Below, piece after piece: positions 28,409 through 58,815 of a DNA stretch of 64,000 nt (position 1 is the stretch's first letter; each line of letters begins with the position of its first letter). This stretch comes from Spirochaetes bacterium ADurb.Bin133 (GTDB lineage: Bacteria; Spirochaetota; GWE2-31-10; MWDO01), in NCBI GenBank assembly GCA_002070605.1, contig MWDO01000003.1, positions 11,853 to 75,852 on the forward strand, read 5' to 3'. Made by a program: the position numbers and the translations under genes. Under the pieces are notes generated by a model. That model was not told where the DNA came from. It ran no database searches and was given only the letters and a program-made list of their open reading frames with translations.

Positions 28409-28470
28409 TATATTCAAAACGGGAATTCCCGTTTTTTTATTAATAGCGCCCCATAGATGTGTCAAATTTA
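28409..28470. repeat. Palindrome module and core unit of the repeat family
   Basis: 28409-28448 is identical (40/40) to 27713-27752; followed by a reverse GACACATCTATG unit. Confidence 0.9.
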
Positions 28471-37499: not shown

Positions 37500-38366
37500 A
37501 TGAAAAGTTATCAATCGTATTCTAAAATAAATCTGTTTCTAAACGTAACCGGAAGGTATAAGAGCGGTTATCACTCTATAAAGAGTCTATTTTGCCGCGC
37601 TACGTTGTCGGATAGCATATCCTATTCTCTAAACGATACAAATAAAATCAAAATTATAGACAAAAAAAATATATTGCCGGAGAATAATCTTTTAAAAACG
37701 GCGGCAGATAAAATTATTTCGAGTTTGAACGGTAGAATTCCTTTTGGCATAGATTTTACAGTCGAGAAAAAAATACCTATAGGCGGCGGGCTTGGCGGCG
37801 GCTCTTCTAACGCCGCTTCCGTTTTAAAAATTTTAAATAAAGAGTGGCGGCTAAATTTCGGGGTTGAAAAATTAAAAAAAATCGCGCGACAAATCGGAGC
37901 GGACGTCCCCTTTTTTATCGAGGGGGGGACGCAAAAAGTTTTCGGCGTCGGGGAGATAGTCAAATCAATAAAAACGGGAATTCCCGTTTTTTATTTAATT
38001 CTGGTTTTCCCGGAAATTCAGGTATCCACTCCCGCCGCTTATAAATTGATTGACGACAATAATATGGCTTGCGAATCTTACGAAGAACGAAAAATGTTTA
38101 AAAAATTAATCGAAGGGTACCGCTCTAACGATTACAAAAAAATAATTTCTAATGTTTATAATAAATTTGAATATCCCGTATTTGCTCAAAACAAAATATT
38201 ATCTGATATAAAAAACGACGTTCTTGACAGCGGAGCCGACGCGTCGGTTATGTCTGGATCCGGCTCGACGATAATCGGCATATACGAGACTTATGAAAAA
38301 AGAAAAACGGGAATCGAGCGTTTACAATCTTACGGATATAACGTCGAGCCGGTAGAAATATTTTAG
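37500..38366 (+). CDS. ispE: 4-diphosphocytidyl-2-C-methyl-D-erythritol kinase
   Basis: KINLFL, GYHSI, KKIPIGGGLGGGSSNAA, GADVPFF and MSGSGST. Confidence 0.95.
   Translation: MKSYQSYSKINLFLNVTGRYKSGYHSIKSLFCRATLSDSISYSLNDTNKIKIIDKKNILPENNLLKTAADKIISSLNGRIPFGIDFTVEKKIPIGGGLGGGSSNAASVLKILNKEWRLNFGVEKLKKIARQIGADVPFFIEGGTQKVFGVGEIVKSIKTGIPVFYLILVFPEIQVSTPAAYKLIDDNNMACESYEERKMFKKLIEGYRSNDYKKIISNVYNKFEYPVFAQNKILSDIKNDVLDSGADASVMSGSGSTIIGIYETYEKRKTGIERLQSYGYNVEPVEIF
37970..37991. repeat. Repeat-family palindrome inside ispE
   Basis: AAAAACGGGAATTCCCGTTTTT (22-bp perfect palindrome) encoding KTGIPVF. Confidence 0.85.
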
Positions 38367-38384
38367 AAAAATTGGACGCATATG

Positions 38385-38760
38385 CGTCAAAAAAAACAAC
38401 AACATATGCGTTAAAAAAACAAATTGACACATATGGAGCTGTAGGCCGCGCCCTGATAAAACCGGGAATTCCCGTTTTGAATATATTAAAATACTAACAC
38501 CCTCTTCATACCGGGACCTTATCGGGCTCGCGTCGCTCCCCGACGAATAATTTGACACATATGGAGCTATACGCGCGGGACGCGAAATCGAGGGTTCAGT
38601 TCTACACATACCGCCGCGGCTACTCCCCGATAAAAATTTGACACATATGAGCTACATAACTGCCGCGCCGCTCCCCCAATAGAATTTGACACATATGGAG
38701 CTATACGCCGCGCGACTATTGAACCATTGATTTTCCCTCGTATACGCGCGGGGCGCGATA
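38385..38760. repeat. Large modular repeat cluster between ispE and parC
   Basis: About six TTGACACATATG units with GC-rich GGAGCTA..GCCGCGCCGCTCCCCGA linkers and a palindrome module at ~38461. Confidence 0.9.
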
Positions 38761-43552: not shown

Positions 43553-44194
43553 TTAAAAAATAGCATTAATCAAGTTATTAATGACGTTTAAAATCATTTC
43601 TTTCCTTTTCTCGTCGGCAACGACGGTTTTATTTACAGCGTCTCCGGTCGTATCTATAGTTATAACGTCGTCGCCGTTAAGAATAGTTCGGTCGTTTTGT
43701 AAAAGAGAACTAAATCTGAGCGTCTGATTTTGAATATTAGACGACGCTACCGTTCCGTTTACGATGTCCTTTACGTTAACCGTCCCGCTTATTTGAATAC
43801 TACTTATTTTATTGTTTAAATAAATCTGTTTTTGAGCTGTTATTCCTAGATTTTCTCCATTAACGGCTACAACTCTGCCTTGAAGTTCAGTTTTTATTTT
43901 TAAATCGTCGTTTTCGCTCGAATTTTTATTATCGCTCGTATCTCCGGTTGGTAAGAAATTCAATAGAGCCGAATATTCTCCCCCCTTGATATTTATTGAA
44001 AAATTTTTAACGGATTTGACCCCTGATTTGTAAACTAAAGAGCTGTTTTCATTAACCAATATTAAGACAGAATCGCCTATCGAGTAATTTATTTTGGAAT
44101 TGTAAATATTAGCGTAGTTATCGTTCCACAACGTTTCGGGATAAAAAAAAACGCAAAAACTTAAGAAACCTAATACTAAAAATTTTTTTTTCAT
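43553..44194 (-). CDS. FlgH (flagellar L-ring)-like exported protein
   Basis: TLW...IY......IGD.VLILV.E, RVVAV..ENL.I...KQI.LN....IQISG.V...DI..GTV.S. Confidence 0.65.
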   Translation of the reverse strand: MKKKFLVLGFLSFCVFFYPETLWNDNYANIYNSKINYSIGDSVLILVNENSSLVYKSGVKSVKNFSINIKGGEYSALLNFLPTGDTSDNKNSSENDDLKIKTELQGRVVAVNGENLGITAQKQIYLNNKISSIQISGTVNVKDIVNGTVASSNIQNQTLRFSSLLQNDRTILNGDDVITIDTTGDAVNKTVVADEKRKEMILNVINNLINAIF

Positions 44195-44265
44195 ATTACT
44201 TCCGTTTACTGTGATTACTAAATTATCGGAATATTTATAAAAAAATAGAATTATATGAACTGTTT

Positions 44266-44430
44266 TTTTAGTATATTCAAAACGGGAATTCCCGTTTTGA
44301 ATATACTAAAACACTAAAGCGTTCTTCATACTGGGACCTTATCGGAGCTCGCGTCGCTCCCCGATGTAATTTGACACATATGGAGCTGCATACGTCGCGC
44401 CGCTCCCTGAGAGAATTTGACACATCTATG
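44266..44430. repeat. Repeat cluster with a perfect 46-bp palindrome
   Basis: TTTTAGTATATTCAAAACGGGAA|TTCCCGTTTTGAATATACTAAAA (44266-44311), linker and two core units. Confidence 0.92.
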
Positions 44431-44804
44431 CCGAGAAAATATTGCTAGCCGGCGGGCATGGTTATATAATGAAAACAGAAATTCTTGAAAAAATGATAGA
44501 AGCGATAAGGATCGTATTTAACGGCGGTATATATGTCAGCGAAAATATTAAAGACCGGCTGTTAATTAAAAAATATTCTCAAAAAACCGGTTTAATAAAA
44601 AATGTTGAAGATACGCTGTCTCAAAGAGAATACGAAATTTTTAAATACGTCGGCGCGGGTTATTCCCCAAGCGAAATATCCAATCTTTTGAATTTATCCG
44701 TCTCGAGCGTAAATACTTACAAAAAAAGAATTCAAGATAAACTAAATATAAACGATTCTTGCGAGCTTAAAAAATACGCTATTAAATATTTTAAAAGTTT
44801 GTGA
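44421..44804 (+). pseudogene. NarL/FixJ-family response regulator lacking most of the receiver domain
   Basis: IYAEKILLAGGHGYIMK (end of REC) plus LSQREYEI...LSVSSVNTYKKRI (LuxR HTH); in-frame TGA at 44418 inside the repeat. Confidence 0.75.
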
Positions 44805-44817
44805 AACAATAGTTTTT

Positions 44818-44890
44818 AATTTTGACGCATAGACGCCGCGCCCCGATGAATAAATTGACACATATGGAGTAACATACTCGCCGCGAATTA
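44818..44890. repeat. Repeat cluster
   Basis: Two TTGAC(A/G)CAT units with CCGCGCCCCGATGAATAAA linker. Confidence 0.8.
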
Positions 44891-44896
44891 ATTTTA

Positions 44897-45151
44897 TTAT
44901 TTATACGCATCTTTTCTAAAAACAACTCTTGATACTACTACTTTTTTTTCTTTTTCTTCAATGTAAAATAATATTCGATAATTCCCAGATCTTAATCTAT
45001 ATTCATTATCTCTATCTACTAATTTTTTAACATTCTGATTTCGAGGATTTTCTTTTAGAGTTTCAATATTTTTCAAAATGACCGAATAAAAAGGTTCATT
45101 AATATCTTCTAAATCTTTAACAGCGCTTTTTTTCAACGCAATATTATACAA
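44897..45151 (-). CDS. RelE/ParE-family toxin
   Basis: KSAVKDL, L..NPR...KKL, YRLRSGNYRILF and R.DAY. Confidence 0.88.
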   Translation of the reverse strand: MYNIALKKSAVKDLEDINEPFYSVILKNIETLKENPRNQNVKKLVDRDNEYRLRSGNYRILFYIEEKEKKVVVSRVVFRKDAYK

Positions 45152-45338
45152 TTTTTTTTAACCTTTTATAGTCGTCAAAATTAACTTCATCTTCGTCTAT
45201 TGTTTTTTTAATTAATTCTGAATCTATCTTATCTTCAATTATTTCTATCAGTTTAAGAAAATCATTATAATCAATTATTACTTTCGTTTTATTCCCCTGA
45301 TCGTCGACTATATATTCTCTTGTTAATGATAAATTCAT
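45144..45338 (-). CDS. Cognate antitoxin (RelB-like, 64 aa)
   Basis: YIVDDQG.KT.VII....F..L.E..ED; acidic; overlaps the toxin start. Confidence 0.8.
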   Translation of the reverse strand: MNLSLTREYIVDDQGNKTKVIIDYNDFLKLIEIIEDKIDSELIKKTIDEDEVNFDDYKRLKKIV

Positions 45339-45370
45339 AATTTTTCCCTTACGCGCTTAATATTATTATT

Positions 45371-45399
45371 AATTTAATATTTTTAAACAAAAATATCAA
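45371..45399 (-). promoter_or_regulatory. TA operon promoter
   Basis: Minus-strand TTGATA-17-TAAATT. Confidence 0.55.
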
Positions 45400-45419
45400 T
45401 AAAATTTACTCCAAAAATG

Positions 45420-45590
45420 GTAATTCGTTAGTTTTTTGAGAATTTAAAACATCTGTCCCATATTCGCCGCGCCGCTCCCCCGATAGAAATTTGACACATA
45501 TGTGTCAAAATAAAATTCGACACATATGGGTATCCACCGACCCCTCGATTTCGCATCCCGCGGCGCGTAGTCGAGGGTTTGAAATACGTC
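45420..45590. repeat. Repeat cluster with degenerate terminal motif
   Basis: GTAATTCGTTAGTTTTTTGA (compare GTAATCCGTCAGTTTTTTGG at 20743); perfect palindrome TTTGACACATATGTGTCAAA at 45490-45509. Confidence 0.85.
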
Positions 45591-45635
45591 TACTGAATCG
45601 TATTTATCCATGGTACAGATTTAATTTATTTACCT

Positions 45636-45948
45636 TTAAAATTTTTTCAAAATATTATCATAATCTGCATGAGAACCTATCCAAAACCAAATGATTTCAT
45701 CTTTATTTGCAAAAACGCCTAAGGCTCTCCACCCTATGCCAACTCTAATAGAATATTGTTTTTCCGGCTTTATAATTTGAGACGGCTTCTTCAGCCATAC
45801 TTTCTAATATGTCTTGAGACTCTATAAATAAATTATCTCATTTTAATTCCGACTCAATCTCATCAAGTATCTGTTGAGCCAATAGATTTTGAATTGAATC
45901 GGGCAAATTAGAACTTTTTTTAAAAGCTTTTTCTAATAATTTTGTCAT
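45636..45948 (-). pseudogene. Inactivated type II TA pair (antitoxin with nonsense codon plus C-terminal half of a RelE-like toxin)
   Basis: MTKLLEKAFKKSSNLPDSIQNLLAQQILDEIESELK*DNLF..SQDILESMAEEA....AGKT (TGA at 45840-45838); in another frame YSIRVGIGWRALG...IIWFWIGSHADYD* with no toxin N-terminus; absent from the ORF track. Confidence 0.8.
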
Positions 45949-46056
45949 TATTACCGCCTATCGTCTAATAAATTTAAACAATTAAGACAAATTTGTCAAT
46001 AATTATTTAATCGTAAAATAGCCGCATGTCATTCAAAAAAACAAAGATTATCGTTG

Positions 46057-46304
46057 ACTTTTACCATAGATGTCAAAAAATAAATTTGACACATATGGAT
46101 CTGCATAGTCGCCGCGCCGCTCCCCGATGAAAATTGACACATATGCGCCGCTTCCTGATAAAAGCGGGAATTCCCGTTTTGAATATACTAAAACACTAAA
46201 GCGCCCTTCATGCCAAGACCTTATCGGGACTTGCGGCGCTCCCTGATATAAAATGACACATATGTGTTAAAATTCCTATCGCCCTAAAAAACCTATAGAG
46301 GTAC
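46057..46304. repeat. Repeat cluster with palindrome module and degenerate terminal motif
   Basis: Three core units, GCGGGAATTCCCGTTTTGAATATACTAAAAC and CTAAAAAACCTATAGAGGTAC (46284-46304). Confidence 0.88.
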
Positions 46305-46323
46305 GATTCAAGAATATTTTTAT

Positions 46324-46352
46324 TTGACTTTATTAATACCAATATGTATATT
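46324..46352 (+). promoter_or_regulatory. TA operon promoter
   Basis: TTGACT-17-TATATT. Confidence 0.7.
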
Positions 46353-46378
46353 ATGTATAAGTTTGAGGAGGATTAATT

Positions 46379-46606
46379 ATGAATAATTATTTAGATAGAA
46401 TTGAAACAAATCCAAATATCATGCTTGGTAAACCAATAATAAAAGGAACAAGAATTACTGTTGAATTGATTATAAAAAAATTATCAGAAGGTATGTCTTA
46501 TGACGATATTAAAAAAGCTTATCCTATTTTAAAAGACGAAGATATTTTTGCAGTTTTATCTTACTCCTACGAGGTTATTTCTAAGGAGGAGATGCTTGCT
46601 ATATAA
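46379..46606 (+). CDS. DUF433 antitoxin
   Basis: RIETNPNIMLGKPIIKGTRITVE.I...YP.L..EDI.A.L.Y. Confidence 0.92.
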   Translation: MNNYLDRIETNPNIMLGKPIIKGTRITVELIIKKLSEGMSYDDIKKAYPILKDEDIFAVLSYSYEVISKEEMLAI

Positions 46607-46946
46607 AATTGTAGCGGATGAAAGCGTTGACTACAGAATTATAAAAAAACTGACAAAAACTGGAAACCAAGTTATATCTATTCATGAAAAGTATTCCGGA
46701 ATAACCGATAAGGAAGTAATCAAAATAGCGATAGAAAATAATGCAATAATAATAACCGAAGATAAAGATTTTGGCGAATTGGTATTCTCGCATAAAGAAA
46801 AATCAACAGGAGTAATATTATTAAGATATACTGCGATAGATTATGATAAAATTTCGCAAGTAGCGCTAAATGTTATTGAAAATTACAATTTATATAATAA
46901 ATTTTGCGTTCTTACGATAAATAAAATAAGAATAAGAGAAATATAA
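46596..46946 (+). CDS. DUF5615 PIN-like toxin (VapC45-like)
   Basis: ADESV, ITD.EVI..A, IITEDKDFG.L and GVILLR; start moved to TTG 46596 after AAGGAGGA. Confidence 0.88.
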   Translation: MLYKIVADESVDYRIIKKLTKTGNQVISIHEKYSGITDKEVIKIAIENNAIIITEDKDFGELVFSHKEKSTGVILLRYTAIDYDKISQVALNVIENYNLYNKFCVLTINKIRIREI

Positions 46947-47059
46947 ATATTATTTAATCTTTTTTAAGGTTGTAAATATTTTAGAATAGACGCCTATACA
47001 TATCGCTTATTGTCAACATATCTGGCGAGGGAAACTCGAGAACTATTATATCGAGAGTT

Positions 47060-47425
47060 ACAGCCCCGATGAATAAATTGACACATATGATACCGACAAA
47101 CATCGGGGTGCGCTCTACTGTTTTAAAAATTTGGCACATATGGAGCCGCATAACCGCCACGCCGCTTCCCGATGGAAATTCGACGCATATGAAGCTACAT
47201 GCGCCGCTATGCCCCCCGACGAATAATTTGACACATACGGAGCTATACTCGTCGCGCTCCCCGATAGAAATTTGACGTATATGGGGTGTTTTGTTCTTAA
47301 CGGCGCAAGCCCCGATATGAGCATATTTAGTATTTTAGTATATTCAAAACGGGAATTCCCGCTTTTATCGGGGCGCGACAATTGTCGCATAGAAATTGAC
47401 ACATATGGAGCTACATGCGTCGCTA
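47060..47425. repeat. Large repeat cluster
   Basis: Six core units at ~45-50 bp period and a palindrome module (47327-47372) inverted relative to 46150-46200. Confidence 0.9.
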
Positions 47426-47427
47426 AA

Positions 47428-48813
47428 TTAGAACTGATAGCCGCCCGAAATAAATACGTTCATAGATAGCGCGTCTACGGTTTGAATATTAACTGTATTG
47501 CCGATAATTTGAGCTTTACCTCTTCCTCCGGACGCCACTATGCCCAGGTTTACGCAGAGGTCCGACGTGGCGAATCCAAACGTCAAACTGCCTCCAAACA
47601 TATGGACATGGTCTTTCTTATTTCGGTCGCCTTCGTTAATGACCTGAGTATTGGAAAAGTTGGTAAAAAATCCCACTCTTAACGGGAAATTCGGAGTAAT
47701 ATACCATTCGTATCCGATAGCTACGTTGCCGATTATATTAAGTTTTTCGCTGTTTCCCAGAAGAACTTCATCGTGTTTTTTTGTGGTAGAGTTGTATTGA
47801 TATCGGATAACCTGTTGAGAAGCGTTGAAGTGTTGTATAGGGATGTAAAGGTATCCGTCTAGACTTAAAAGCATCGATTTGCTGATGAAAACGCATATTC
47901 CCAGCGCTTGTTTGATATAAAGAGGTCTAAATAGGCCGTTTTCGGCAATATTTAGTACTTTAAGCGTATTATTAACTACGTTGTCTTGATCAACCGCCAG
48001 TACCCAAGAGTCGGTGGTCTGATCGAGGTATTTTAGTTTATAGCTCGACGTCGATTGATAAGTATTAATGTTTACTATATCGAACGGGGTAGAAATCGAA
48101 TAGCCGATTGAGAGTTTATCTATCGGCATAAACTGAAGTCCCAGTTGAAAATTCAAACCGATAATTCTTTCGTTTTTATAGATACTTCCGTCTTGAAAGA
48201 AGTCGAGCGCTTTGGTATTCATTTTATAAATTGTTTGAGAAATAAGTTTCTTATCGCGATATCTTATAAAAGCGTTGAACCCCAGAGATACCTTTTTATG
48301 CAACAAAAAAGCGAAAGAGGGTCCGGCTTCGTAAACCATATCCGTAAAGTTAAAATTAACGTTTAAATTAGTAGGTCTTACTCCTAAATTTCCGTAGTTA
48401 TTTAGGATTGTCGCGTTGTCCCTTTGATCGTAAAATTCGCTGTCGGCGCTTGTTACCGTTATAGCGAACGTAAAATGCTTTTGTCTCTGTATAAACCCAA
48501 AAAAGTTCGGTATAAAAGAAAAAGAATATCTGAGGTAATCGAAATAGTCTCCGCCGGACTTTGGAAAAACGTCGTGATAATACAGCATTTTAAACTGTAT
48601 AGCGTTGACCGACAATGAAAAGTACTTCGAAGAGGAGTAGGCTAATCCCGCCGGGTTGTAGAAAGCGCCTTCCGGTCCGTCCGCTATAGCCGTATAAGCT
48701 CCGGCTAGTCCCGCCGCTCTATCTCCGACAAATAAATTTATATAGTGATTCTCGTCCGCCGAAACGTTAAATAGTAATAAAAGCGATATCGAGATTAAAA
48801 CTACTCTTCTCAT
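47428..48813 (-). CDS. FadL/OmpP1-like outer-membrane beta-barrel
   Basis: Signal peptide, GDRAAGLAGAY.A...FYNPAGL plug motif, alternating strands and C-terminal GGYQF. Confidence 0.8.
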   Translation of the reverse strand: MRRVVLISISLLLLFNVSADENHYINLFVGDRAAGLAGAYTAIADGPEGAFYNPAGLAYSSSKYFSLSVNAIQFKMLYYHDVFPKSGGDYFDYLRYSFSFIPNFFGFIQRQKHFTFAITVTSADSEFYDQRDNATILNNYGNLGVRPTNLNVNFNFTDMVYEAGPSFAFLLHKKVSLGFNAFIRYRDKKLISQTIYKMNTKALDFFQDGSIYKNERIIGLNFQLGLQFMPIDKLSIGYSISTPFDIVNINTYQSTSSYKLKYLDQTTDSWVLAVDQDNVVNNTLKVLNIAENGLFRPLYIKQALGICVFISKSMLLSLDGYLYIPIQHFNASQQVIRYQYNSTTKKHDEVLLGNSEKLNIIGNVAIGYEWYITPNFPLRVGFFTNFSNTQVINEGDRNKKDHVHMFGGSLTFGFATSDLCVNLGIVASGGRGKAQIIGNTVNIQTVDALSMNVFISGGYQF

Positions 48814-49643
48814 TTTTTCTCCTCCCCGCCGCTTTTAACCAAAGATTTAAATTTTAGGAAATTTTCAGAATCGCTTAGTTTGTCTATGTTGGGAATAATA
48901 TGCTCCTCCATTCTCTTTACTCTCTCCTCGATTTTTGGGTGAGTAGCGTCGAGATTTTCCAGCGCTTTTACGTCCGGATAGTTCGACAGCGCCGAAAGAT
49001 AGTCGATATAATCTCTCGCATTAATATTCAAACTTTGAAGAAGATCGAGAGCGTATCTGTCCGCTTCAAATTCATCTTCGTTATCCAGACCTTTAACAAA
49101 CAGCTCCTCCTCAATTTGATCGGATATCTGATTTGCTATATTGGTAATAACCTGTCTAGGACCGGCAATAACTCTAGCCAACATCTCGAAGAAGTTATAT
49201 CTGACCTCTACCTTAACCCTTTTTAATATATGCTTTTTATTGATATGCCCCAATTCGTGAGCAAGAACGCCTAATAGAGCCGATTGATTATCTATGCTGT
49301 TAATAGCGCCCTTAGAGATCAATATATACCCGCCGGGAAGCGAATAAGCGTTTATCTGATCGGTATTTAATATTGCAAAAAAGTACTCGATCTCTTGTCT
49401 CTCCGTATACAGGGCTAACGATTTGCCGAGTTTGTTTAAGTAAGACGTCGCTTCCTCATTCTTTAGAACGCCGTATTTTCCGGCGATCTTAGCAAAAGCC
49501 GCTCTTCCTACCTCTTTCTCTTTCTCCGCGATTTCGAGTTGCTTTTCAACCTCGTTTTCGCGTTTTATCTCCTCCATACTTTTGCAACTTACGAGCAAAA
49601 TTAACAAAATTGAAAGCGCCAACGCAATTTTTAGAATTCTCAT
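48810..49643 (-). CDS. M48 metalloprotease lipoprotein (BepA-like)
   Basis: LLVSC lipobox, INAYSLPGG, LAHELGH, EFEAD and THP. Confidence 0.9.
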   Translation of the reverse strand: MRILKIALALSILLILLVSCKSMEEIKRENEVEKQLEIAEKEKEVGRAAFAKIAGKYGVLKNEEATSYLNKLGKSLALYTERQEIEYFFAILNTDQINAYSLPGGYILISKGAINSIDNQSALLGVLAHELGHINKKHILKRVKVEVRYNFFEMLARVIAGPRQVITNIANQISDQIEEELFVKGLDNEDEFEADRYALDLLQSLNINARDYIDYLSALSNYPDVKALENLDATHPKIEERVKRMEEHIIPNIDKLSDSENFLKFKSLVKSGGEEKK

Positions 49644-49829
49644 ATACTCCCTCTACTCCCTCGACGTATTGCACAAATTTTTTAACCTATGGTAGCATTA
49701 TAAATATTTTATACCTTATTGTAAATAAAAAAGTACAAATATTTAGCTTTTTAAATTTTAAACTTTAAATTAAACAAAAAAGATCGCCTTCAGACAGACG
49801 ACCTTTATTAAACAATCTTTTATATTTAA

Positions 49830-50324
49830 CTAGAAGTTTATAAACTCCGCCTCTGAAAACGCCACTAACTCCTCTTCCGTAAAACTAAACGTATTCTCAA
49901 CCCACTTGATGGATTCAAAATCGTAGTCGCTGAAAGATAAATTCTCTCTATCCCTGACGCTCTCGCTTGAAAGCCCTCTTACCGCCGCTGCGCTTGACGT
50001 AAAGTTGCTGGCTCTTTTTCTTATCTCTACGGAAGACAAATCGGCTTTACTATCGGCGACGCTGCTAACCTTGACCCCGGGCTCTTCGCCCAAAAACATA
50101 TTCTTGACGTATCCCGAAACGCCGTTTATCTTTATAAAACTCCAATCCCCTTTGATCTCGATAACTTCCACTTTATCGTTATGGTTTAACGCTCCGATTT
50201 TTGTTGAAGACATATTTGCTTCTTGAAAATATGGACAAATTCTTGCTTTTACAAACGCTTCCTTCGCAAAACCAAAAGAAGCTACCAAGAACAGAGATAT
50301 AATTACAACAAATCTTTTATTCAT
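49830..50324 (-). CDS. Exported SH3b-domain protein
   Basis: Signal peptide, KVEVIE..GDW..I.....SGYV, SAAAVRGL; start moved to ATG 50324 (GGAGG RBS). Confidence 0.8.
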   Translation of the reverse strand: MNKRFVVIISLFLVASFGFAKEAFVKARICPYFQEANMSSTKIGALNHNDKVEVIEIKGDWSFIKINGVSGYVKNMFLGEEPGVKVSSVADSKADLSSVEIRKRASNFTSSAAAVRGLSSESVRDRENLSFSDYDFESIKWVENTFSFTEEELVAFSEAEFINF

Positions 50325-50548
50325 AAAACTTCCTCCTTTTATCTTTATATAAAGTATATTATAACACAAAAAAAAAAAAAAACACTATTTAATTAATAAA
50401 TATTTCTTTTTGCGCATTATTTTTTTTAAAATAGTTAGCGCAAAAGCGCGTTGTTATAATTATATATAAAGTGTAAAATGTATTGAGTATTAAGCGGTTT
50501 TTCATATAAACTATACAGTATTATATTCAAGCGCATAGGAGTTGATAT

Positions 50549-51535
50549 ATGGATTCTCAGGTTAAAGAGATACATTCAAAAGTTGAAAGAGAGGCTCCGA
50601 CGATAGAATCGGTCATGTCCGAGTTGAAAAAACGTATTGTCGGGCAGGAAGAGATGTTGCAGGGGTTGCTTATCGGGCTGTTGGCTAAAGGTCATATATT
50701 AGTCGAGGGGGTTCCGGGGCTTGCAAAAACGTTGACCGTTAAGACTTTGTCCGAGGTATTAGATATAGATTTTAAAAGAATTCAATTTACTCCGGATTTA
50801 TTGCCGTCGGATATTGTCGGCACGCTGATATATAACCAAAAAATCGGCGAATTTGAGCCCAAAAAAGGTCCCGTTTTTACCAACTTTGTTTTGGCGGACG
50901 AGATAAACCGCGCTCCGGCTAAAGTTCAGGCGGCTCTGCTCGAGGCGATGCAGGAGAAGCAGGTAACTATCGGAGAACGCGGTTATAAATTGGACGAACC
51001 GTTTTTGGTTATGGCTACGCAAAATCCTATCGAGCAGGAGGGGACTTACAATCTCCCCGAAGCGCAAATAGACAGGTTTATGTTAAAAATCAAAGTCGGC
51101 TATCCAAAAAAGGAAGAGGAGAAGATCATACTCGACAGAATGATTAGTCAGGAAGAGATAAAAGTATCAAAAGTATTATCGCGGGATAAGATTGTCGAAT
51201 TGACAAATTTATCCGACGAGATATATATCAGCGATAGGATTAAAAATTATATAGTAGACATCGTGCACTCCACAAGAGAGCCGGAGGGGTATAATTTAAA
51301 AATTAAGTCTTTTATAGATTACGGCGCGTCCCCCAGAGCTAGTATATTTTTAGCGCGGGCGGCTAAAGCTAACGCTTTATTGTCGGGAAGGGGATTTGTT
51401 ACGGCGGACGATATTAAGTCGGTAAGTTTCTCCGTTTTAAGACACAGGATTATTTTGAGTTATGAAGCGGAAGCCGAAGGGGTTGCGTCGGAAGATATTA
51501 TAACGCAAATTTTTAATACTATAATGGTTCCTTAA
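50549..51535 (+). CDS. moxR: MoxR-family AAA+ ATPase
   Basis: GHILVEGVPGLAKT, RIQFTPDLLPSD, DEINR, ATQNP, DRF and GASPR. Confidence 0.95.
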   Translation: MDSQVKEIHSKVEREAPTIESVMSELKKRIVGQEEMLQGLLIGLLAKGHILVEGVPGLAKTLTVKTLSEVLDIDFKRIQFTPDLLPSDIVGTLIYNQKIGEFEPKKGPVFTNFVLADEINRAPAKVQAALLEAMQEKQVTIGERGYKLDEPFLVMATQNPIEQEGTYNLPEAQIDRFMLKIKVGYPKKEEEKIILDRMISQEEIKVSKVLSRDKIVELTNLSDEIYISDRIKNYIVDIVHSTREPEGYNLKIKSFIDYGASPRASIFLARAAKANALLSGRGFVTADDIKSVSFSVLRHRIILSYEAEAEGVASEDIITQIFNTIMVP

Positions 51536-51548
51536 TAAAAGGTAAGTC

Positions 51549-52439
51549 ATGAAAGAAGAAGAGAAGATTCCGTTAGAACTGCTGAAAAAAATCAAAAAAA
51601 TTGAGATCCGCTCGCGTCTTGTAGTCAACGAAGCGATGAGCGGCGGATATAACTCTGTATTTCGCGGATACGGAATGGAATTTCAGGAGGTCAGAGAGTA
51701 CTCTATAGGCGACGATTTTAGAAGAATCGATTGGAACGTTACCGCCAGGCATAACAACCTCTATATAAAAACCTTTAAAGAAGAGCGCCAGCTAAACGTT
51801 ATGTTACTATTGGATATCTCCGGATCTTTGGGATTTGGTTCAAAATCTTCCACTAAACATGATAAAATGGTAGAGACTTCGGCGATCTTGGCGTTAACGG
51901 CTATGGACAATCAAGATAAGATCGGAGCTGTTTTTTTTACCGATAAGGTTGAGAAAGTTATTATTCCCACCAAAAATAAAAATACTATACTGCGGCTTCT
52001 GAGGGAGATACTGTTTATAAAGCCGCAGTCTAACGGAACGGATATAAATAACGCGATTGATTTTGCCGTTGAGAATATGAAAAGAAGAGGCGTTATATTT
52101 ATTCTGTCCGATTTCTTGGCGGAGGTAAGTTTTAAAAAGATTTTTATCGCCTCTAAAAAACACGATATTATTCCGGTAGTTTTGACCGACGAATTTGAAG
52201 AATATCCGATAAATCTCGGGCTTGTCGATATGGTCGATAACGAGAGCGGCGAGTTGATGTTGGTAGATACTTCGTCCGAGAGTTATAAAAAATTTGTCGA
52301 AGAGAGAAAAGCTCGGAAAGCGAAATTCTTTTTAGAGTTGAAAAAACTCAATATCGAGCCGCTTATTATCGATACCGGCGCGGACGTCGAGCTTCCGATA
52401 ATGAGATATTTTGAGAAAAGAAGAAAAAAAATCAGATAG
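51549..52439 (+). CDS. DUF58 (VWA-like) protein
   Basis: G.GMEF.EVREY..GDD.R.IDWNVTAR and EEER. Confidence 0.93.
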   Translation: MKEEEKIPLELLKKIKKIEIRSRLVVNEAMSGGYNSVFRGYGMEFQEVREYSIGDDFRRIDWNVTARHNNLYIKTFKEERQLNVMLLLDISGSLGFGSKSSTKHDKMVETSAILALTAMDNQDKIGAVFFTDKVEKVIIPTKNKNTILRLLREILFIKPQSNGTDINNAIDFAVENMKRRGVIFILSDFLAEVSFKKIFIASKKHDIIPVVLTDEFEEYPINLGLVDMVDNESGELMLVDTSSESYKKFVEERKARKAKFFLELKKLNIEPLIIDTGADVELPIMRYFEKRRKKIR

Positions 52440-52450
52440 GGTAGAATATA

Positions 52451-53428
52451 ATGAGAAAATATCCGGCGGCTTTGTTACTTTTTTTATCCTTATTTCGGCT
52501 TTTTTCCGACTCAAGCGACGATATAATCTCTGAAATAACAAAGAGCTCTATTAAAATAGGCGAAAAAGCCGTAATAACGACGAAATTATCCGGAATGAAG
52601 GATATGAAGATACTTTGGCAGGATTTATCCAAATCCGAAGCGGATATCGAAGTATTGTCGACAAAAGATTCCTATATTAAAGATTATCTGAATTTAGAGA
52701 TAGTTTTTACCTCTTTCAAACCGAAAGAGTATGTCGATCTATATTTTACTATTCCGATGGTAGACCCCGCCGGCGAATCTTTTTATCTTGAGACGAAGAA
52801 ATATTCTATTTCGGTTAACGGCGTATTATCCCCGACGGATTTGGAGGCGGCGAAGAGTATTCAAGACCCTTCAAAGATTGAACTTAAGCCCGAAAAAGGA
52901 CAGGAGAAATTTAGTTTTAATTTTCGACCTTACGCGGCCGTTATCGTTACTATACTAATAGCGCTCGCGTGCGCCGCCGTTATTTTTTATCTCCTTTATA
53001 ACTATTTTATTAAAAAGAAGTTTAAGGAGGTTAAAAAAGCCGATATTTCTCCTTACGAGAGATTTTTAGCGAGTATGAATATGATAGTATTTGAGCCGGA
53101 TGAAGATAGAAAAGAGTCCGAATATAAACTCTCGGTTTTATCGGAGTCGCTAAAGGAGTTGATATTTGGCGAGTTTATGATTAGCGCCCCGTCCGAGACG
53201 ACGAGGGAGCTGATTCGCGCGCTAAAATTGAATAATTTTGACGAAGACGTAACTTTTATTATTAACAAGCTTTTTACCGAGATGGATATGATAAAATTTG
53301 CCAAAGCGCCTTACGACTTTGACAGACTGCATTTTTTTTACGAAAAAATAAAAGAACTCGGCGGGAGAATTCATGAACTTTATAAATACCAAAATATCGA
53401 GAAAAAAGAGGACGGGGCGAATAAATGA
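52451..53428 (+). CDS. Bat-operon membrane-anchored protein
   Basis: Signal peptide, Ig-like region, one TM segment, TTRE...KFAK helical tail; operon position. Confidence 0.7.
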   Translation: MRKYPAALLLFLSLFRLFSDSSDDIISEITKSSIKIGEKAVITTKLSGMKDMKILWQDLSKSEADIEVLSTKDSYIKDYLNLEIVFTSFKPKEYVDLYFTIPMVDPAGESFYLETKKYSISVNGVLSPTDLEAAKSIQDPSKIELKPEKGQEKFSFNFRPYAAVIVTILIALACAAVIFYLLYNYFIKKKFKEVKKADISPYERFLASMNMIVFEPDEDRKESEYKLSVLSESLKELIFGEFMISAPSETTRELIRALKLNNFDEDVTFIINKLFTEMDMIKFAKAPYDFDRLHFFYEKIKELGGRIHELYKYQNIEKKEDGANK

Positions 53429-54375
53429 GAATATATCGGCTTGATAATCCTTACGGACTGCTGTTTCTATTAATTCCTTTACTGTGTCTCGCCGTCGTAA
53501 TACTATCTCGATTTTTTTTTAAAAAAGGCGCCCTCGTCTCCGCTATTTACGGATACAAGAACTTCCGGTCTTTAAAGATATACGGATATTTTGTATCGTT
53601 ATCTTTGATATTGTTAGGTATGTCGTTGATAGCGTTTAGTCTTTCCAAGCCTCAATTTGGAATAAAAAAGGAAAAAATTATTACGGAAGGCATCGATATT
53701 ATGATCGCTTTAGACGTATCGGGGAGTATGACGACTTCGGATTTTTTTTCATACAGCAGGATCGAAGGGGCTAAAAACATACTGCAGAAATTTGTCGCTA
53801 AACGCAAAGGGGATCGCATAGGGCTCGTTACTTTCGCGGAGAGCTCTTTTCTAAAATGTCCCGCTACCGTTAACTTCGATCTTTTAACGAAAGTTATAGG
53901 GAAAATATTTATCGATCCGAATAAACAGAGCTCCACCTCCATCGGTATCGGGCTGGCGAGCGCTATAAACAGGCTTCTACAGATGAAGGATAACGCTAAT
54001 CCCGATTCGAAGATAGCGATCCTTGTTACCGACGGAATTAACAACTCCGGCGAGATTAGTCCGGAGGCGGCTACGGAGATAGCTCTGCAAACGGGGATAA
54101 AAGTATATACCGTAGGAATCGGCGAATCTAACGAAGTGGACGTTAAACTTCTTGGCGATATAGCGAATAGAACTAAAGGGAAGTTTTTTCACGCGAAAAA
54201 TGCCGGCGAACTCGGACCTATTTTTGACGAAATAGATAAAATAGAAAAACGTAAAATTGAAACTTTGGAGTTTGTAAGATATAAAGACGTCGGTTACAAA
54301 TACGCTCTGGCGGGGATAATAATAATGATATCCGGACTTTTATTTAACGGACTATTTTTTAAGAGGTTAGGCTGA
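53425..54375 (+). CDS. batA: BatA VWA-domain protein
   Basis: IMIALDVSGSM MIDAS, RIGLV.F, T.IG.GL, LVTDG.NN.G and terminal TM. Confidence 0.9.
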   Translation: MRIYRLDNPYGLLFLLIPLLCLAVVILSRFFFKKGALVSAIYGYKNFRSLKIYGYFVSLSLILLGMSLIAFSLSKPQFGIKKEKIITEGIDIMIALDVSGSMTTSDFFSYSRIEGAKNILQKFVAKRKGDRIGLVTFAESSFLKCPATVNFDLLTKVIGKIFIDPNKQSSTSIGIGLASAINRLLQMKDNANPDSKIAILVTDGINNSGEISPEAATEIALQTGIKVYTVGIGESNEVDVKLLGDIANRTKGKFFHAKNAGELGPIFDEIDKIEKRKIETLEFVRYKDVGYKYALAGIIIMISGLLFNGLFFKRLG

Positions 54376-54377
54376 AA

Positions 54378-56135
54378 ATGTTTGAGAATAAGTATTTTTT
54401 CTGGTTATTTTTAGCGATTCCGGTTATATCTCTAATATTTATAGCGGATATTCTGCTTTTAAGGAAAAAATCAAAGTTGTTAGCCGGTAAAAACGTAGCG
54501 AGTATCATACCTTTCTATACGGAAGGTCAAAAATGGCTGCGGCTGATATTCTACGTTTTGGGTTTTGCCCTGGCGGTTCTGGCTTTGGCGAGACCGAGAT
54601 GGGGAGTCGAGACCATAGAGACGGAGGTTAAGGGGAGGGACATTCTTCTGATACTGGACGTTTCGTATTCGATGGCGGCAAACGACGTCGTTCCGTCGCG
54701 GTTGGACTCGGCTAAAAGGTATATCGTCGAACTTCTTGAAATGGAGACCGGCGATAGGATAGGGCTATCCGTATTTAGCGGAGCTTACGAACTTGTGTCG
54801 CCTATTACCCACGACTATGCGGCGATCAATTTTTTTACAGAGTCTCTCTATCCGGGGATGCTCGGCAAAGGGGGGACTAATATCGGCGACGCGATAATTA
54901 ACGGTATAGACTCTTTCGACGATACCGAACCCCGCAATAAAATGATAGTTCTTATTACCGACGGCGAAGATATCGAAGGACCTTATTATCAGATGTTGAA
55001 AAAGGCTAAAGAATCGAAGATCAAAGTTTTTACGGTGGGCGTCGGGACAAAGAGCGGCGAGCCCATTCCGATAAGAAACGCCAAAGGGGAGATCGAGTCT
55101 TACGTAAAAGATGAAAATAATAGACATGTTATCAGCAAACTTGACGAAAGACGGTTGATTGAGATAGCCGAGTCGTCGGGAGGCGCTTATCTGAAGACGT
55201 CGAATAAAAAAGGGGAGTTAAGGAAGTTTATTGAATCGATCTCTTCGGTCGAATCGGAGGAGTTGGAAGAGTTGAAATATGAACAAAAAAAAGAGAGATA
55301 CGATATATTCTTAATTCCGGCGTTGATATTTTTCGCTATAGGATTTATCCTTGATCAAGGGAGAATGATAAGATCGTCAAAAAACAGACTTAGCTGGCTT
55401 TTGGGTAAAAACAGCTTGATAACGATATTTGTTTTGTTAATGTTGCTCGGTTCTAACTATTTATCGTTTTCTCAAACCGATCCGAGCGACGACGTTTCCG
55501 GTAAAAATACCAACGAGATGAGAGATAATAAAAGCGCTTTTGGAGATCCAAACGGCGGTTTCTGGGGAAACAGAAAGTTTAAGAAAGGGGATTTCAACAA
55601 AGCGCTTGAGAAATATGCGTCGGCGATCAATCATCTTCGCGAAAACCAGCTGGCGAAGCTATACTACAATATAGGAAATACCTATATGAAATTGAACGAT
55701 CATAAAAACGCCGCGCAATATTTTGAAACCGCCGGCTCTTTTGCAAAAGAGGACTCGGTCAAATCAAAAATATTTTATAATATGGGGCTTGTAGCTTTTA
55801 AAAATAACGATTTTGCAAGCGCTAAAAATTTATTTAAAGAATCTATAAAACTCAACGAATTAGACGACGACGCGCGGTATAACTACCAGATAGCCGAGTT
55901 GATGGATGAAAAAACAAAAAAGGATAATAAACAGGATAATCAAGAACAAAAGGATAATAAACAATCAGAGGAAAAGAAGGACGAAAATCAAGATCAAAAT
56001 AGAGAAGAAGAAAAATTATCTAAGGAAGATATTGAGAAACTTCTAAAATCGCTCGATGATAAAGAAAAAAGCGAAAATAGAGATAAAACTTTGAAAGAAC
56101 AAAAAAATATTAATCGGAGAGGTAAATATTGGTAA
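54378..56135 (+). CDS. batB: BatB-BatC fusion (VWA + TPR + low-complexity tail)
   Basis: LARPRWG, LDVSYSM.A.DV.PSRL, ITDGED; then TM, TPRs (YNIGN, YNMG) and a Q/D/K/N-rich tail ending in W. Confidence 0.85.
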   Translation: MFENKYFFWLFLAIPVISLIFIADILLLRKKSKLLAGKNVASIIPFYTEGQKWLRLIFYVLGFALAVLALARPRWGVETIETEVKGRDILLILDVSYSMAANDVVPSRLDSAKRYIVELLEMETGDRIGLSVFSGAYELVSPITHDYAAINFFTESLYPGMLGKGGTNIGDAIINGIDSFDDTEPRNKMIVLITDGEDIEGPYYQMLKKAKESKIKVFTVGVGTKSGEPIPIRNAKGEIESYVKDENNRHVISKLDERRLIEIAESSGGAYLKTSNKKGELRKFIESISSVESEELEELKYEQKKERYDIFLIPALIFFAIGFILDQGRMIRSSKNRLSWLLGKNSLITIFVLLMLLGSNYLSFSQTDPSDDVSGKNTNEMRDNKSAFGDPNGGFWGNRKFKKGDFNKALEKYASAINHLRENQLAKLYYNIGNTYMKLNDHKNAAQYFETAGSFAKEDSVKSKIFYNMGLVAFKNNDFASAKNLFKESIKLNELDDDARYNYQIAELMDEKTKKDNKQDNQEQKDNKQSEEKKDENQDQNREEEKLSKEDIEKLLKSLDDKEKSENRDKTLKEQKNINRRGKYW

Positions 56136-57958: not shown

Positions 57959-58703
57959 AACTGCTCTTATAACCTTCTTAATTGTTTTATTATTGCCGCT
58001 TAGTTTGTTCTCCTCCGAAGAGGTAAACGCGCTATTCAACTACGCTCTTCAACATTATAATAATAAAGAGTATGAAAAAGCTCTCGATTATTTTTTGAAA
58101 ATAAGAAACGATAATAAAATCGATAATTTTGAAATAAATTTTAATATCGGTTCGTGCTATTTTAAATTAGATAGATACGGCGAATCAAGATTCTATTTTG
58201 AAAGAGGACTTCTCTATAATCCCTTTGATAACGATCTTAATTTTAATTTAAAGGTTTTATACAATATTTTATTAAAAAATCCAAAATCCGGCGAACAGGA
58301 GATAATGAACCAAAGAATTATATTCTTTTTACCAAAAATGGTTCTTTTTTCTCTATTTCTAGTTTTATTAATAGTCGTAGTCGTTTTTATGGTTTTATTC
58401 GTTACAATCGAACGCTTTAGAAAAACTTTTTTGGTCTTATTAATAGGCTTTTTTATTTTTTTGGTTATGATTACGTCGTTAATATTTGTCCAAAACTACG
58501 AATATAATAAAAAAGTATTTGTCGTAACGGATAAAACGGCAAACGTATATCTCAACCCTACCGACAACAATTCATTAATGATGTCAATATCGGTCGGGTC
58601 AAAAGGGAGAGTAATAAACGACATAGGCGATTATATCAAGATAAATACCCCCGACGGATCGTCCGGGTGGATCAGAAAAGACAAGGTTATATCGAATAAA
58701 TAG
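57948..58703 (+). CDS. batE: BatE (TPR + TM + SH3) protein
   Basis: TPRs (FNIG.CY), two TM segments and KI..PDG..GWI. Confidence 0.85.
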   Translation: MKAKTALITFLIVLLLPLSLFSSEEVNALFNYALQHYNNKEYEKALDYFLKIRNDNKIDNFEINFNIGSCYFKLDRYGESRFYFERGLLYNPFDNDLNFNLKVLYNILLKNPKSGEQEIMNQRIIFFLPKMVLFSLFLVLLIVVVVFMVLFVTIERFRKTFLVLLIGFFIFLVMITSLIFVQNYEYNKKVFVVTDKTANVYLNPTDNNSLMMSISVGSKGRVINDIGDYIKINTPDGSSGWIRKDKVISNK

Positions 58704-58754
58704 TCTTTTTATAGTCTCTTTATAGTCTCTTTATAACTCTTTATAGGCAAGCGC

Positions 58755-58805
58755 TCCGCGTCGAATCGATCAAAAATAGAAATTTGATTAAAAATTCGAC
58801 GCGGA
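58755..58805. terminator. Inverted repeat between convergent batE and PilZ genes, containing repeat-family AAATTCGACGC
   Basis: TCCGCGTCGAAT / ATTCGACGCGGA 12-bp stem. Confidence 0.5.
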
Positions 58806-58815
58806 CAGGTTTGCG

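Follow-up and report, generated by a model that had tools for sequence, protein, structure and literature searches.

The interval 44266-47425 of the window (the 64-kb stretch of DNA analysed here, from an uncultured spirochaete of anaerobic digesters; Spirochaetota MAGs, ~38% GC) is probably an accessory islet that varies among strains and lies at a lineage-specific rearrangement junction, and in which REP/BIME/MITE-like, presumably selfish repeats serve as recombination substrates. The islet would consist of self-contained, self-promoted type II toxin-antitoxin (TA) operons and a gene fragment, with every gap filled by species-specific repeats; the repeat family would work like REP/BIME, BOX or NIME mosaics and be related to TIR-bounded MITEs with p171 copies (see below). 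Recombination between units would delete, or less probably insert, whole TA-containing blocks because co-oriented copies flank each operon, and repeat-associated rearrangement may truncate neighbouring genes too. TA operons would pile up at the islet because these modules, acquired horizontally, are short, are tolerated and have free flanks, and no dedicated capture machinery would place them.

Genes and repeats of the islet

Gene content, assigned with Pfam and NCBIfam profiles, and repeat maps bear out the repeat/gene alternation reported in a preliminary description of this DNA: repeats alternate with a 5'-truncated NarL-type regulator, RelB/ParE, a decayed ParE-like pair and DUF433/DUF5615(PIN) (Table 1), in mixed orientations (+,-,-,+). 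The regulator corresponds to residues 94-206 of the ~217-aa UvrY/NarL-type response regulators (NF007018 alignment), of which it retains the GerE HTH and only the last part of the receiver; the truncation falls precisely on a core motif of the repeats. RelB/ParE, DUF433/DUF5615 and Phd/YafQ, the latter being a fourth TA pair of the window that lies outside the islet with repeats on both sides, are predicted type II TA operons, judging from adjoining small genes with the antitoxin first and TA-family domains; the partner genes overlap by 8-11 nt. The Phd/YafQ locus sits between 56-nt direct repeats (27704-27759 and 28400-28455, 96% identical) that carry a half-palindrome. In the decayed pair, the antitoxin frame has a TGA nonsense at codon 37, after 36 codons, and the toxin is reduced to its C-terminal ~40 aa, in another frame, its N-terminal half being gone. 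An intact relative of this toxin's family, an 87-aa ParE_like toxin with a 74-aa partner, is found at locus L123.

Table 1. Positions of the genes, repeats and variable segment in the window
Feature	Position	Strand	Evidence or remark
Phd/YefM (27865-28122) and YafQ/RelE (28115-28390), repeat-flanked	27704-28455	+	Pfam and NCBIfam
FlgH-like lipoprotein gene	43553-44194	-	PF02107 E=3.2e-13; left conserved flank; syntenic in sister species up to 44298
Perfect 46-nt palindrome (TTTTAGTATATTCAAAACGGGAA/TTCCCG...), terminator-like	44266-44311		Inverted repeat 23+23 nt, 100% complementary
Palindrome extension and two 47-nt TTGACACATATG units	44312-44425	+	Wrap-around alignment: array 44327-44425
NarL/UvrY-type response regulator, 5'-truncated	44442-44804	+	GerE HTH PF00196 E=4.6e-13
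~1.5 repeat units	44812-44885	+	Direct-repeat families; array 44834-44885
ParE/RelE-family toxin, 84 aa	44897-45151	-	ParE_toxin PF05016 E=1e-9
RelB-like antitoxin, 64 aa	45144-45338	-	PF18506 E=3.6e-10; 8-nt overlap with toxin
One unit, palindromic double core TTTGACACATATGTGTCAAA and one more core	45437-45546	+	Left breakpoint of haplotype-A-specific segment
Segment of haplotype A (window) missing from haplotype B	45507-47126		Holds decayed pair and DUF433/PIN
Decayed ParE-like TA pair	45634-45948	-	Translations; PF24732 (ParE_like) E=4e-4, profile positions 34-67 only
IS110-family right-end remnant, 43 nt, joined to repeat core	46031-46073	+	100% identical to element ends in 8 other loci
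Two units, inverted palindrome module with extension, palindromic core 46253-46270, degenerate TIR-like end	46076-46302	+	Array 46082-46145; sequence read directly
DUF433 antitoxin-like protein, 75 aa	46379-46606	+	PF04255 E=8.6e-21
DUF5615/PIN-like toxin, 116 aa	46596-46946	+	PF18480 E=6.8e-21; PIN_10 0.003; public gene call
4-5 co-oriented units, palindrome module 47326-47377, last unit	47063-47425	+	Array 47064-47284; direct-repeat copy 47392-47425
FadL/Toluene_X-like outer-membrane protein	47428-48813	-	PF03349 E=1.9e-6; right conserved flank

Each TA had been assigned its own predicted promoter, and a sigma70-like consensus match indeed stands ahead of each antitoxin gene: TTGATA-17-TAAATT at 45399-45371 for relB, TTGACA-18-GATAAT at 46076-46047 (minus strand, 11/12) for the decayed pair, and TTGACT-17-TATATT at 46324-46352 for DUF433. 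These calls are consensus matches only, 30 being found against 17.8 +/- 4.4 in shuffles. The inverted palindrome modules said to bracket DUF433-PIN are likewise present, as 52-nt arms (46149-46200 and 47326-47377) that are 92% complementary.

The repeat family is made of 47-nt TTGACACATATG units and a 46-nt terminator-like palindrome. The window has 30 copies of TTGACACATATG at <=1 mismatch (0.14 expected), 13 of them in 44371-47407, and 7 copies of AAACGGGAATTCCCGTTT (0.02 expected); of its 34 relaxed cores, 33 lie between genes. Each unit has a 12-nt invariant core and a TTGACA. The 13 cores of the array all have + orientation despite the differing orientations of the genes; two of these cores fall in palindromic double cores, so they match the - strand too. 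The last core before the truncated regulator is a variant, TTGACACATCTATG, abutting the gene, while the last unit of the right array stops 2 nt short of the fadL-like stop codon. A 104-nt module (44279-44382) is 86% identical to 46161-46264. The leftmost palindrome is ancestral, as the core palindrome stands at the same place in four sister loci.

Some of these features would suit domesticated regulatory modules, the palindrome being a bidirectional terminator or insulator and the units supplying -35 boxes, kept to insulate or drive TA operons. The TTGACA of every unit fits this explanation, as do the palindrome's A-tract/GC-stem/T-tract hairpin and its position after convergent or 3' gene ends in sister species, the 11/12 promoter match that the junction of core and IS110 end presents to the decayed pair, and a 5-bp GGAGC/GCTCC stem that is paired in 77-96% of 104 units, with G-T changes tolerated on one strand. 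However, the pairing is due mostly to conservation, with compensatory double changes almost absent from the 104 units. Moreover, the best relB and DUF433 promoter matches are in unique DNA outside the repeats, the number of units varies freely, even between strains, there was no Rfam match, and a terminator scan did not call the palindrome. We consider a regulatory role of this kind very improbable.

Gain or loss of blocks at the edges of repeats

Two haplotypes were found at the islet. Haplotype B, represented by at least six assemblies (including GCA_029571205.1) that are 97.5-99% identical to the window (haplotype A) on both sides, carries an unbroken run of 6-7 co-oriented units in place of the A-specific segment (Table 1), with one unit fewer in one assembly. 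Its homology ends at 45506 on the left, and both A/B breakpoints lie within repeat units, at or beside the CATATG core. The block indel maps to repeats, so the gain or loss of blocks takes place at their boundaries. We infer that this indel arose when units recombined homologously, and not through a site-specific enzyme; the event was probably a deletion in haplotype B. Since A and B differ in their junction units, these do not demonstrate a simple recent crossover between present-day units, and a crossover at or beside CATATG, which is also the IS110 target, leaves room for a site-specific event. Similarly, locus L146 has a 1.59-kb block, holding MITEs and a VapBC-like pair, that is missing from the 99%-identical L090; the block is flanked by a 72-nt duplication, with no short target-site duplication.

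Comparison with sister species identified the islet interval as a lineage-specific rearrangement junction. On the left, sister-species homology stops at 44298, inside the palindrome, and on the right its boundary is at 47417, 11 nt past fadL, at the first unit. In the sisters, the MoxR/Bat operon comes straight after SH3-M48-FadL, and FlgH stands in the order FlgH-palindrome-unknown gene; compared with them, the block 47417-50412 is inverted relative to 50453-59716.

The preliminary description had also proposed that TA addiction stabilises an otherwise deletion-prone locus. This is somewhat contradicted by our data, since a common haplotype lacks an intact DUF433/PIN and one pair is already dead. 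Neither TA stabilisation of the locus nor active capture of TA operons is supported.

IS110-family and MITE-like elements

A multi-copy IS110-family element, whose 381-aa ORF matches PF02371 (E=9e-22), is found elsewhere in the genome. It has a DEDD/IS110 transposase and no TIRs, and is inserted at one defined sequence: in 4/4 left-end junctions CATATG is followed immediately by ATGCTAAGG, and in 9/9 right-end junctions CCATAGATG is followed by the core flanks, the nine occurrences representing eight locus-distinct positions with the window's truncated remnant included. All 13 junction occurrences are at the CATATG of the core, which is the insertion site of this element. The islet had been called integrase-free; this is correct for the 64-kb window, where no ORF encodes an integrase, recombinase or transposase, but an IS110 recombinase encoded elsewhere targets the core and has left an end remnant within the haplotype-A-specific segment. 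Remnant and core together form the outward promoter-like site facing the decayed pair.

TIR-bounded copies without an ORF are present in the window at 7173-7362, 20121-20286, 20748-20847 and 27461-27676. Their TIR, CCGWCRGTTTTTTGG, has 12 matches against 0.8 expected, paired as ends of 100-216-nt elements. ORF-carrying relatives with the same ends encode a multi-copy ORFan of 171 aa (p171), present in dozens of copies per genome. With TIRs, no ORF and an ORF-carrying relative, the TIR-type members are MITEs, whereas the units within 44266-47425 are not. No consistent target-site duplication is visible in 13 aligned copies. Searches of Pfam, NCBIfam and PDB with p171 found nothing, no catalytic domain can be recognised in it, and its AlphaFold model is poor (pLDDT 51).

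An IS110-family bridge-type recombinase, or the p171 protein, might use TGACACATATG cores to insert, excise or invert TA segments, which would make the islet an RNA-guided functional analogue of an integron. The exact insertion at the core and the A/B breakpoints at or beside CATATG are in line with this, and so is the position of the remnant inside the A-specific segment. Core variants CATAGATG, equal to the last 8-9 nt of the IS110 element end, are found where the regulator is truncated (44417-44432) and next to the Phd/YafQ cassette (28441-28456). In addition, the 5' untranslated region of the element folds stably (z=-3.9), with two near-identical hairpins flanked by copies of target and donor sequences. 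A 2026 preprint describes IS110 loci that expand with cargo via half-match recombination (10.64898/2026.08.14.744561). On the other hand, the 64-kb window has no intact IS110 or p171 copy, no TA operon is bracketed by a left-end/right-end pair, each TA cassette is found in one context only, and the repeats flanking cassettes vary in number and module type. p171 brings no recognisable catalytic domain to the explanation, and the array boundaries near the core, seen in wrap-around phase analysis of 168 arrays, may be produced by the scoring scheme alone. Overall, we judge such enzyme-driven mobilisation unlikely. A more elaborate version, in which the p171 TIR element seeds co-oriented TGACACATATG arrays that then act as landing pads for an RNA-guided IS110 recombinase moving or deleting, via half-match recognition, the TA operons that lie between cores, a natural bridge-RNA-driven counterpart of the integron, appears slightly less likely still.

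Spread of the repeats, TA genes and related systems

Repeats are present in 13/38 intergenic gaps of the window, many of them non-TA gaps, including those beside methyltransferase, radical-SAM, NifB-like, GHMP-kinase and topoisomerase genes. In ~552 kb of further DNA of the same species (sample ~600 kb) we found 192 repeat clusters combining several module types, and 41% (~40%) of the gaps >=60 nt carry repeats. The longest head-to-tail array has at least 19 units (L052), and the repeat/TA/repeat/TA layout recurs at five loci, L052 and L123 among them. No unit was found in >100 kb of sister-species DNA (84-87% identity), and sisters have ~55 nt instead of the 390-nt repeat cluster at 38368-38757 of the window. 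The repeat expansion is lineage-specific, the family being confined to one species-level lineage. Its high copy number, extragenic location and mosaic clusters are those of REP/BIME-type repeats; no cognate RAYT was found among the multi-copy proteins of the same-species sample. The data are metagenome assemblies, in which breaks and sometimes mis-joins (L004) occur at repeats; the repeats at 44812-44885, for example, break L004 and L009.

TA enrichment beside repeats is real but modest, with an odds ratio (OR) of ~5 among small proteins and ~2 per available gap. TA components make up ~21/78 repeat-adjacent small proteins vs ~8/116 non-adjacent ones (OR 5, p=2e-4; without the window OR 4.1, p=0.002). 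Per gap, repeats are found in 19/30 flanks of TA-like pairs vs 92/223 other gaps (OR 2.5, p=0.03), and in 15/25 vs 85/200 without the window, which is not significant (p=0.13). In the window itself, 6/6 gaps flanking TA operons carry repeats vs 7/32 elsewhere. Pure coincidence, in which repeats fill tolerated gaps, TA operons supply many short gaps and repeats have no role in cassette turnover, would account for the weak per-gap test, for the many housekeeping genes flanked by repeats, and for the sister-MAG palindromes, 0/12 copies of which (11 loci) adjoin a TA pair. It does not sit well with the A/B breakpoints, the ends of sister homology and the regulator truncation all being inside repeats, nor with the protein-level enrichment, which stays significant without the window. 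We regard coincidence as unlikely, at about the level of enzyme-driven mobilisation; enrichment beyond a model in which repeats fill every gap, together with the 6/6 occupied TA gaps, leaves room for a specific repeat-TA link.

On the points by which the preliminary description had proposed in advance to judge its reading, cassette content differs between the two strain clusters, breakpoints lie in repeats and TA genes are enriched beside repeats, so that its hypothesis withstands these tests. Its view of the repeats as capture or recombination platforms stands for recombination (strain indel, sister breakpoints, truncation at the core) but not for integron-like capture. Capture is not supported because repeats fill ~40% of gaps >=60 nt, including those beside housekeeping genes, because TA enrichment is ~2-fold per available gap and non-significant without the window, and because the DUF433, YafQ and ParE proteins each have one genomic context only, with no DNA paralogue of any TA cassette elsewhere in ~600 kb of same-species DNA. 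The lack of attC was also confirmed: the RYYYAAC...GTTRRRY regex, run on both strands, gave 0 matches in 44000-47600 and 2 in the whole window vs ~15 in shuffles. The islet is like integron and superintegron arrays in that small self-promoted TA operons alternate with repeats and content varies among strains. Unlike them, it has no IntI, attI, Pc or attC core sites, and its cassettes are in mixed orientation with a promoter-like site for each TA operon, whereas integron cassettes are mostly promoterless and co-oriented; the number of repeat units between its cassettes varies, and the repeats are also in ~40% of ordinary gaps.

Recombination between selfish repeats, our preferred reading, has parallels elsewhere. 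Enterobacterial REP/BIME elements, too, are short extragenic repeats in high copy number that have a small GC-rich stem, cluster in mosaics whose copy number varies and receive insertions of IS110-family elements (PMC12288879, PMC11208160), but the family described here has a 47-nt unit, a 12-nt invariant core, a 5-bp stem and long head-to-tail arrays, shows no RAYT and is restricted to one lineage. The E. coli folA-apaH ccdO157 TA region has REP elements in a strain-variable gap with intact, decayed or absent TA genes (PMC3184786). BOX of S. pneumoniae and NIME/dRS3 of Neisseria are modular and intergenic too, with end modules and a variable number of ~45-nt internal units, and are tied to variable regions and genome rearrangement; their sequences are unrelated, and in our family the TIR form has a p171 relative while the array form is an IS110 target. 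A BOX element beside yefM-yoeB supplies a promoter. MITE-bounded composites (TIMEs, PMC4133298) resemble the TIR-bounded ORF-less copies and the L146 block, which is bounded by such ends; in contrast, the islet-array repeats have no TIRs, p171 has no known domain and the L146 block has its 72-nt duplication.

These data describe a lineage-restricted system of three linked layers, namely tandem 47-nt units, TIR MITEs with p171, and a core-targeting IS110-family element. For these digester spirochaetes there is a practical lesson, in that short-read assemblies are broken and mis-joined at the repeats. Should the IS110 enzyme act on core-core pairs, the islet would be a case of natural RNA-guided cassette shuffling; otherwise it would be an ordinary accessory islet rich in repeats. 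The two strain clusters, which co-exist, differ in a single TA-containing block that is cut exactly at repeats, and the islet may be a natural example of short selfish repeats shaping both the placement and the loss of accessory TA modules.

Genes and repeats of the interval

Pfam and NCBIfam searches bear out the alternation of repeats with genes that the preliminary description had reported between 44266 and 47425 (see table). The pair in the middle is decayed, a TGA ending its antitoxin frame after 36 codons and the toxin being reduced to its last ~40 residues, in another frame. The same description had assigned each toxin-antitoxin (TA) pair its own promoter and had placed the DUF433/PIN pair between inverted repeat copies. 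Promoter-like sites, which are consensus matches only, were found 5' of each antitoxin gene, and DUF433/PIN does lie between inverted arms of 52 nt (46149-46200 and 47326-47377). Its view that intI and attC sites are missing agrees with our searches, in which no integrase or transposase gene was found within the 64-kb window and no attC-like core pair in the array.

Coordinates of genes and repeat elements (window positions unless a fetched contig locus, L, is named)
Feature	Position	Strand	Remarks
GerE-type HTH ORF (regulator)	44442-44804	+	Alignment to NarL/UvrY-type response regulators (~217 aa) covers residues 94-206 only (Pfam, NCBIfam)
ParE	44897-45151	-	Pfam, NCBIfam
RelB	45144-45338	-	Pfam, NCBIfam
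Decayed ParE-like pair	45634-45948		Between RelB/ParE and DUF433/PIN pairs
DUF433	46379-46606	+	Pfam, NCBIfam
DUF5615/PIN-like	46596-46946	+	Pfam, NCBIfam
Phd/YefM	27865-28122		Fourth TA pair, within 27704-28455
YafQ/RelE	28115-28390		Fourth TA pair, within 27704-28455
MITE copy	7173-7362
MITE copy	20121-20286
MITE copy	20748-20847
MITE copy	27461-27676
p171 element	L055 6104-6844		Also at no fewer than 12 other loci

The fourth TA pair, Phd/YefM-YafQ, is flanked by 56-nt direct repeats that are 96% identical and each carry a half-palindrome; in a sister-species locus (L028), a single palindrome occupies the site homologous to its right-hand flank. Elsewhere in the window, an N6_N4 methyltransferase at 15927-17279 is paired with a BsaWI-like endonuclease at 17280-18068; this restriction-modification pair, in a segment of 28-29% GC, was probably acquired horizontally. 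Near the left end, a protein of 736 aa that has a DNA-methylase domain at its C-terminus (1617-3827) and an AAA_14/DUF4143 ATPase call (4489-5823) may represent further defence-type or mobile genes.

A genome-wide repeat family and an IS110-family element at its core

The 47-nt unit has the consensus TTGACACATATGGAGCTAtATgCGCCGCGcCGCTCCCCGATgAAAAA, derived from 165 units. Repeat numbers in the window are far above chance: its core, TTGACACATATG, occurs 30 times at no more than one mismatch (0.14 expected), and the core of the palindrome, whose perfect 46-nt copy is at 44266-44311, occurs seven times (0.02 expected). Relaxed cores are intergenic in 33 of 34 cases, and repeats are present in 13 of the 38 gaps of at least 30 nt, many of them adjoining ordinary genes (7.2, 13.0, 14.8, 20.2, 20.8, 27.5 and 38.4 kb). 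Scanning metagenomes with an 18-mer from the unit yielded 111 loci, of which the 95 with three or more cores add ~552 kb of non-redundant DNA from the same species. This sample contains 192 repeat clusters, with 41% of gaps of at least 60 nt occupied, making the repeats a genome-wide family. Rfam gave no match anywhere in the window. A CRISPR-like reading of the arrays, whose period is 46-48 nt, was rejected because nearly every position is conserved, leaving no spacers. By wrap-around phase analysis, 51% of 168 arrays stop just past the core; since the core is also the best-scoring stretch of the unit, this figure is blind to site-specific versus random boundaries and was set aside. One palindrome, AAAACGGGAATTCCCGTTTT (37972-37989), is in frame within a GHMP-kinase ORF (37500-38366), its position being kept in sister loci L036, L037 and L038.

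The second flavour of the family is a MITE bounded by terminal inverted repeats (TIRs), with ends CCGWCRGTTTTTTGG and short internal units. Larger relatives of ~800 nt, present in at least 13 copies in the sample at 85-92% nucleotide identity, consist of a TIR (CCGTCRGTTTTTTGG), a TGACACATATG core, a promoter, an ORF for a 171-aa ORFan that we call p171, and a second TIR. About 100 p171 protein clusters were retrieved, every one from Spirochaetota MAGs. The protein has no match in Pfam, NCBIfam or PDB sequences, and its AlphaFold2 model reaches a pLDDT of 51. The window contains no p171 copy; in sister species, homologues are found at each of the two junctions of the interval (L036 253-807 and L030 11671-12192).

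Within the array, 43 nt (46031-46073) match the end of a multi-copy element at eight other loci with 100% identity. In one of these (L066, 2643-4072), this end lies 8 nt 3' of the stop codon of a 381-aa ORF whose product has the transposase domain of the IS110 family (PF02371, E=9e-22). The left-end junction is ...CATATG|ATGCTAAGG in four of four cases. At the right end, each of the nine occurrences, one of them the truncated remnant in the window, reads ...CCATAGATG| followed by the sequence usual after the core. As all junctions agree, the element inserts into the core of the repeat, at its CATATG centre, paralleling the insertion of IS110-family elements into REPs (PMC12288879, PMC11208160). 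The 245-nt region upstream of the ORF folds stably (z=-3.9) and holds two near-identical hairpins flanked by copies of target and donor sequence, and would fit a bridge-type guide RNA; the element's untranslated region had no match in Rfam. A miniature derivative, comprising left and right ends, is found in another locus (L073, 1517-1907). Core variants reading CATAGATG or CATAGATGTGTCAA occur at 28441-28456, beside the Phd/YafQ cassette, and at 44417-44432, precisely where the regulator gene is truncated; the CATAGATGTGTCAA variants have a 2-nt insertion and correspond to the final 8-9 nt of the right end of the IS110 element joined to TGTCAA.

Variation among strains and sister species

Identical flanking proteins occur on contigs of anaerobic-digester metagenomes and in MAGs with the label Spirochaetes or Spirochaetota. 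All the sequence data are metagenome assemblies of short reads, in which these repeats cause breaks or wrong joins. Exact look-ups of the FlgH-like and FadL-like proteins were uninformative on gain or loss, the first 15 contigs being one clone (99.94-100% identical). An exact ParE look-up separated two haplotypes: A, the window type (at least 10 assemblies, 99.9-100% identity), and B (GCA_029571205.1 and five further assemblies, 97.5-99% identity). In B, fadL is followed by an unbroken co-oriented run of six to seven units and then the relB upstream region, one assembly having one unit fewer. The segment missing, 45507-47126, contains the decayed pair and DUF433/PIN along with the inner repeats; both breakpoints are at or adjoin a CATATG core. 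In this comparison, which the preliminary description had called for, cassette content differs between strains with breaks at repeats.

Elsewhere, L146 has a block of 1.59 kb (5569-7164), containing a VapBC-like PIN pair, one more small ORF and MITEs, that a 99%-identical locus (L090, 1922-1993) lacks. The block's borders carry a 72-nt direct duplication of host DNA, a length unusual among target-site duplications. The repeat/TA/repeat/TA layout recurs in five loci (L052, L102, L061, L050 and L123). Two apparent variants were rejected. An odd 219-aa 'gene' at the start of one contig (L004) arose where the assembler strayed into a unit array of 517 nt, and a supposed replacement of the Phd/YafQ cassette (L114) has as its unique end the left end of the IS110-family element; because the contig ends there, no TA loss can be claimed.

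Sister species share 86-92% identity with the window lineage in the FadL protein and 84-87% in DNA. In them, SH3-M48-FadL leads directly into the MoxR/Bat operon, and after FlgH come the core palindrome and, next, an unknown 184-aa gene. Homology to the window ends on the left at 44298, the palindrome centre, and on the right at 47417, 11 nt beyond the fadL stop; relative to three sister lineages, 47417-50412 (SH3-M48-FadL) is inverted with respect to the MoxR/BatA-D operon (50453-59716). Since homology stops at these two points and the FadL block is inverted, the entire GerE-plus-TA interval is lineage-specific and sits at a rearrangement junction. The window gene order requires at least two rearrangement steps from the sister arrangement.

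No TGACACATATG unit was found across >100 kb of sister DNA, and ~55 nt stand in place of the 390-nt repeat cluster that separates the GHMP-kinase gene from the topoisomerase gene (38368-38757), so the unit family expanded recently in this species. Unit number in that cluster also varies between the two strain clusters (38368-38757 versus L114 2784-3071). A sister MAG has the palindrome alone, in gaps 3' of housekeeping genes, and the bare palindrome is older than the unit family. A genome-collection scan with the palindrome returned only the sister MAG and three chance matches.

TA association and the nature of the islet

The proposed enrichment of TA loci beside repeats is present, real and modest. 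Dereplicated proteins of 55-160 aa matched TA families in about 21 of 78 cases next to a repeat cluster and in about 8 of 116 cases elsewhere (OR 5.0, p=2e-4; OR 4.1, p=0.002 without the window), the counts being approximate, from aggregated Pfam tables, and gene calls in fetched loci being simple ORF calls. Because TA operons have two free flanks, the test was redone per gap: repeats occupy 19 of 30 flanks of TA-like pairs versus 92 of 223 other gaps (OR 2.5, p=0.03), or 15 of 25 versus 85 of 200 without the window (OR 2.0, p=0.13).

The repeats had been proposed as capture or recombination platforms. The difference between haplotypes A and B, a block indel at repeats, favours recombination. 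Active, enzyme-driven capture of TA cassettes is less probable and lacks key evidence, since no cassette was found in two contexts and no TA operon is bracketed by element ends; DNA paralogues of the cassettes were absent from ~600 kb, and the exact DUF433, YafQ and ParE proteins each have one context only. The suggested stabilising effect of TA addiction on the locus is hard to reconcile with a common haplotype from which intact DUF433/PIN is absent and with one pair already dead. The best-supported reading of the interval is a repeat-rich accessory islet, in which selfish REP/BIME/MITE-like repeats occupy gaps between genes and, being co-oriented, would serve as crossover points for the loss (or gain) of TA-containing blocks.
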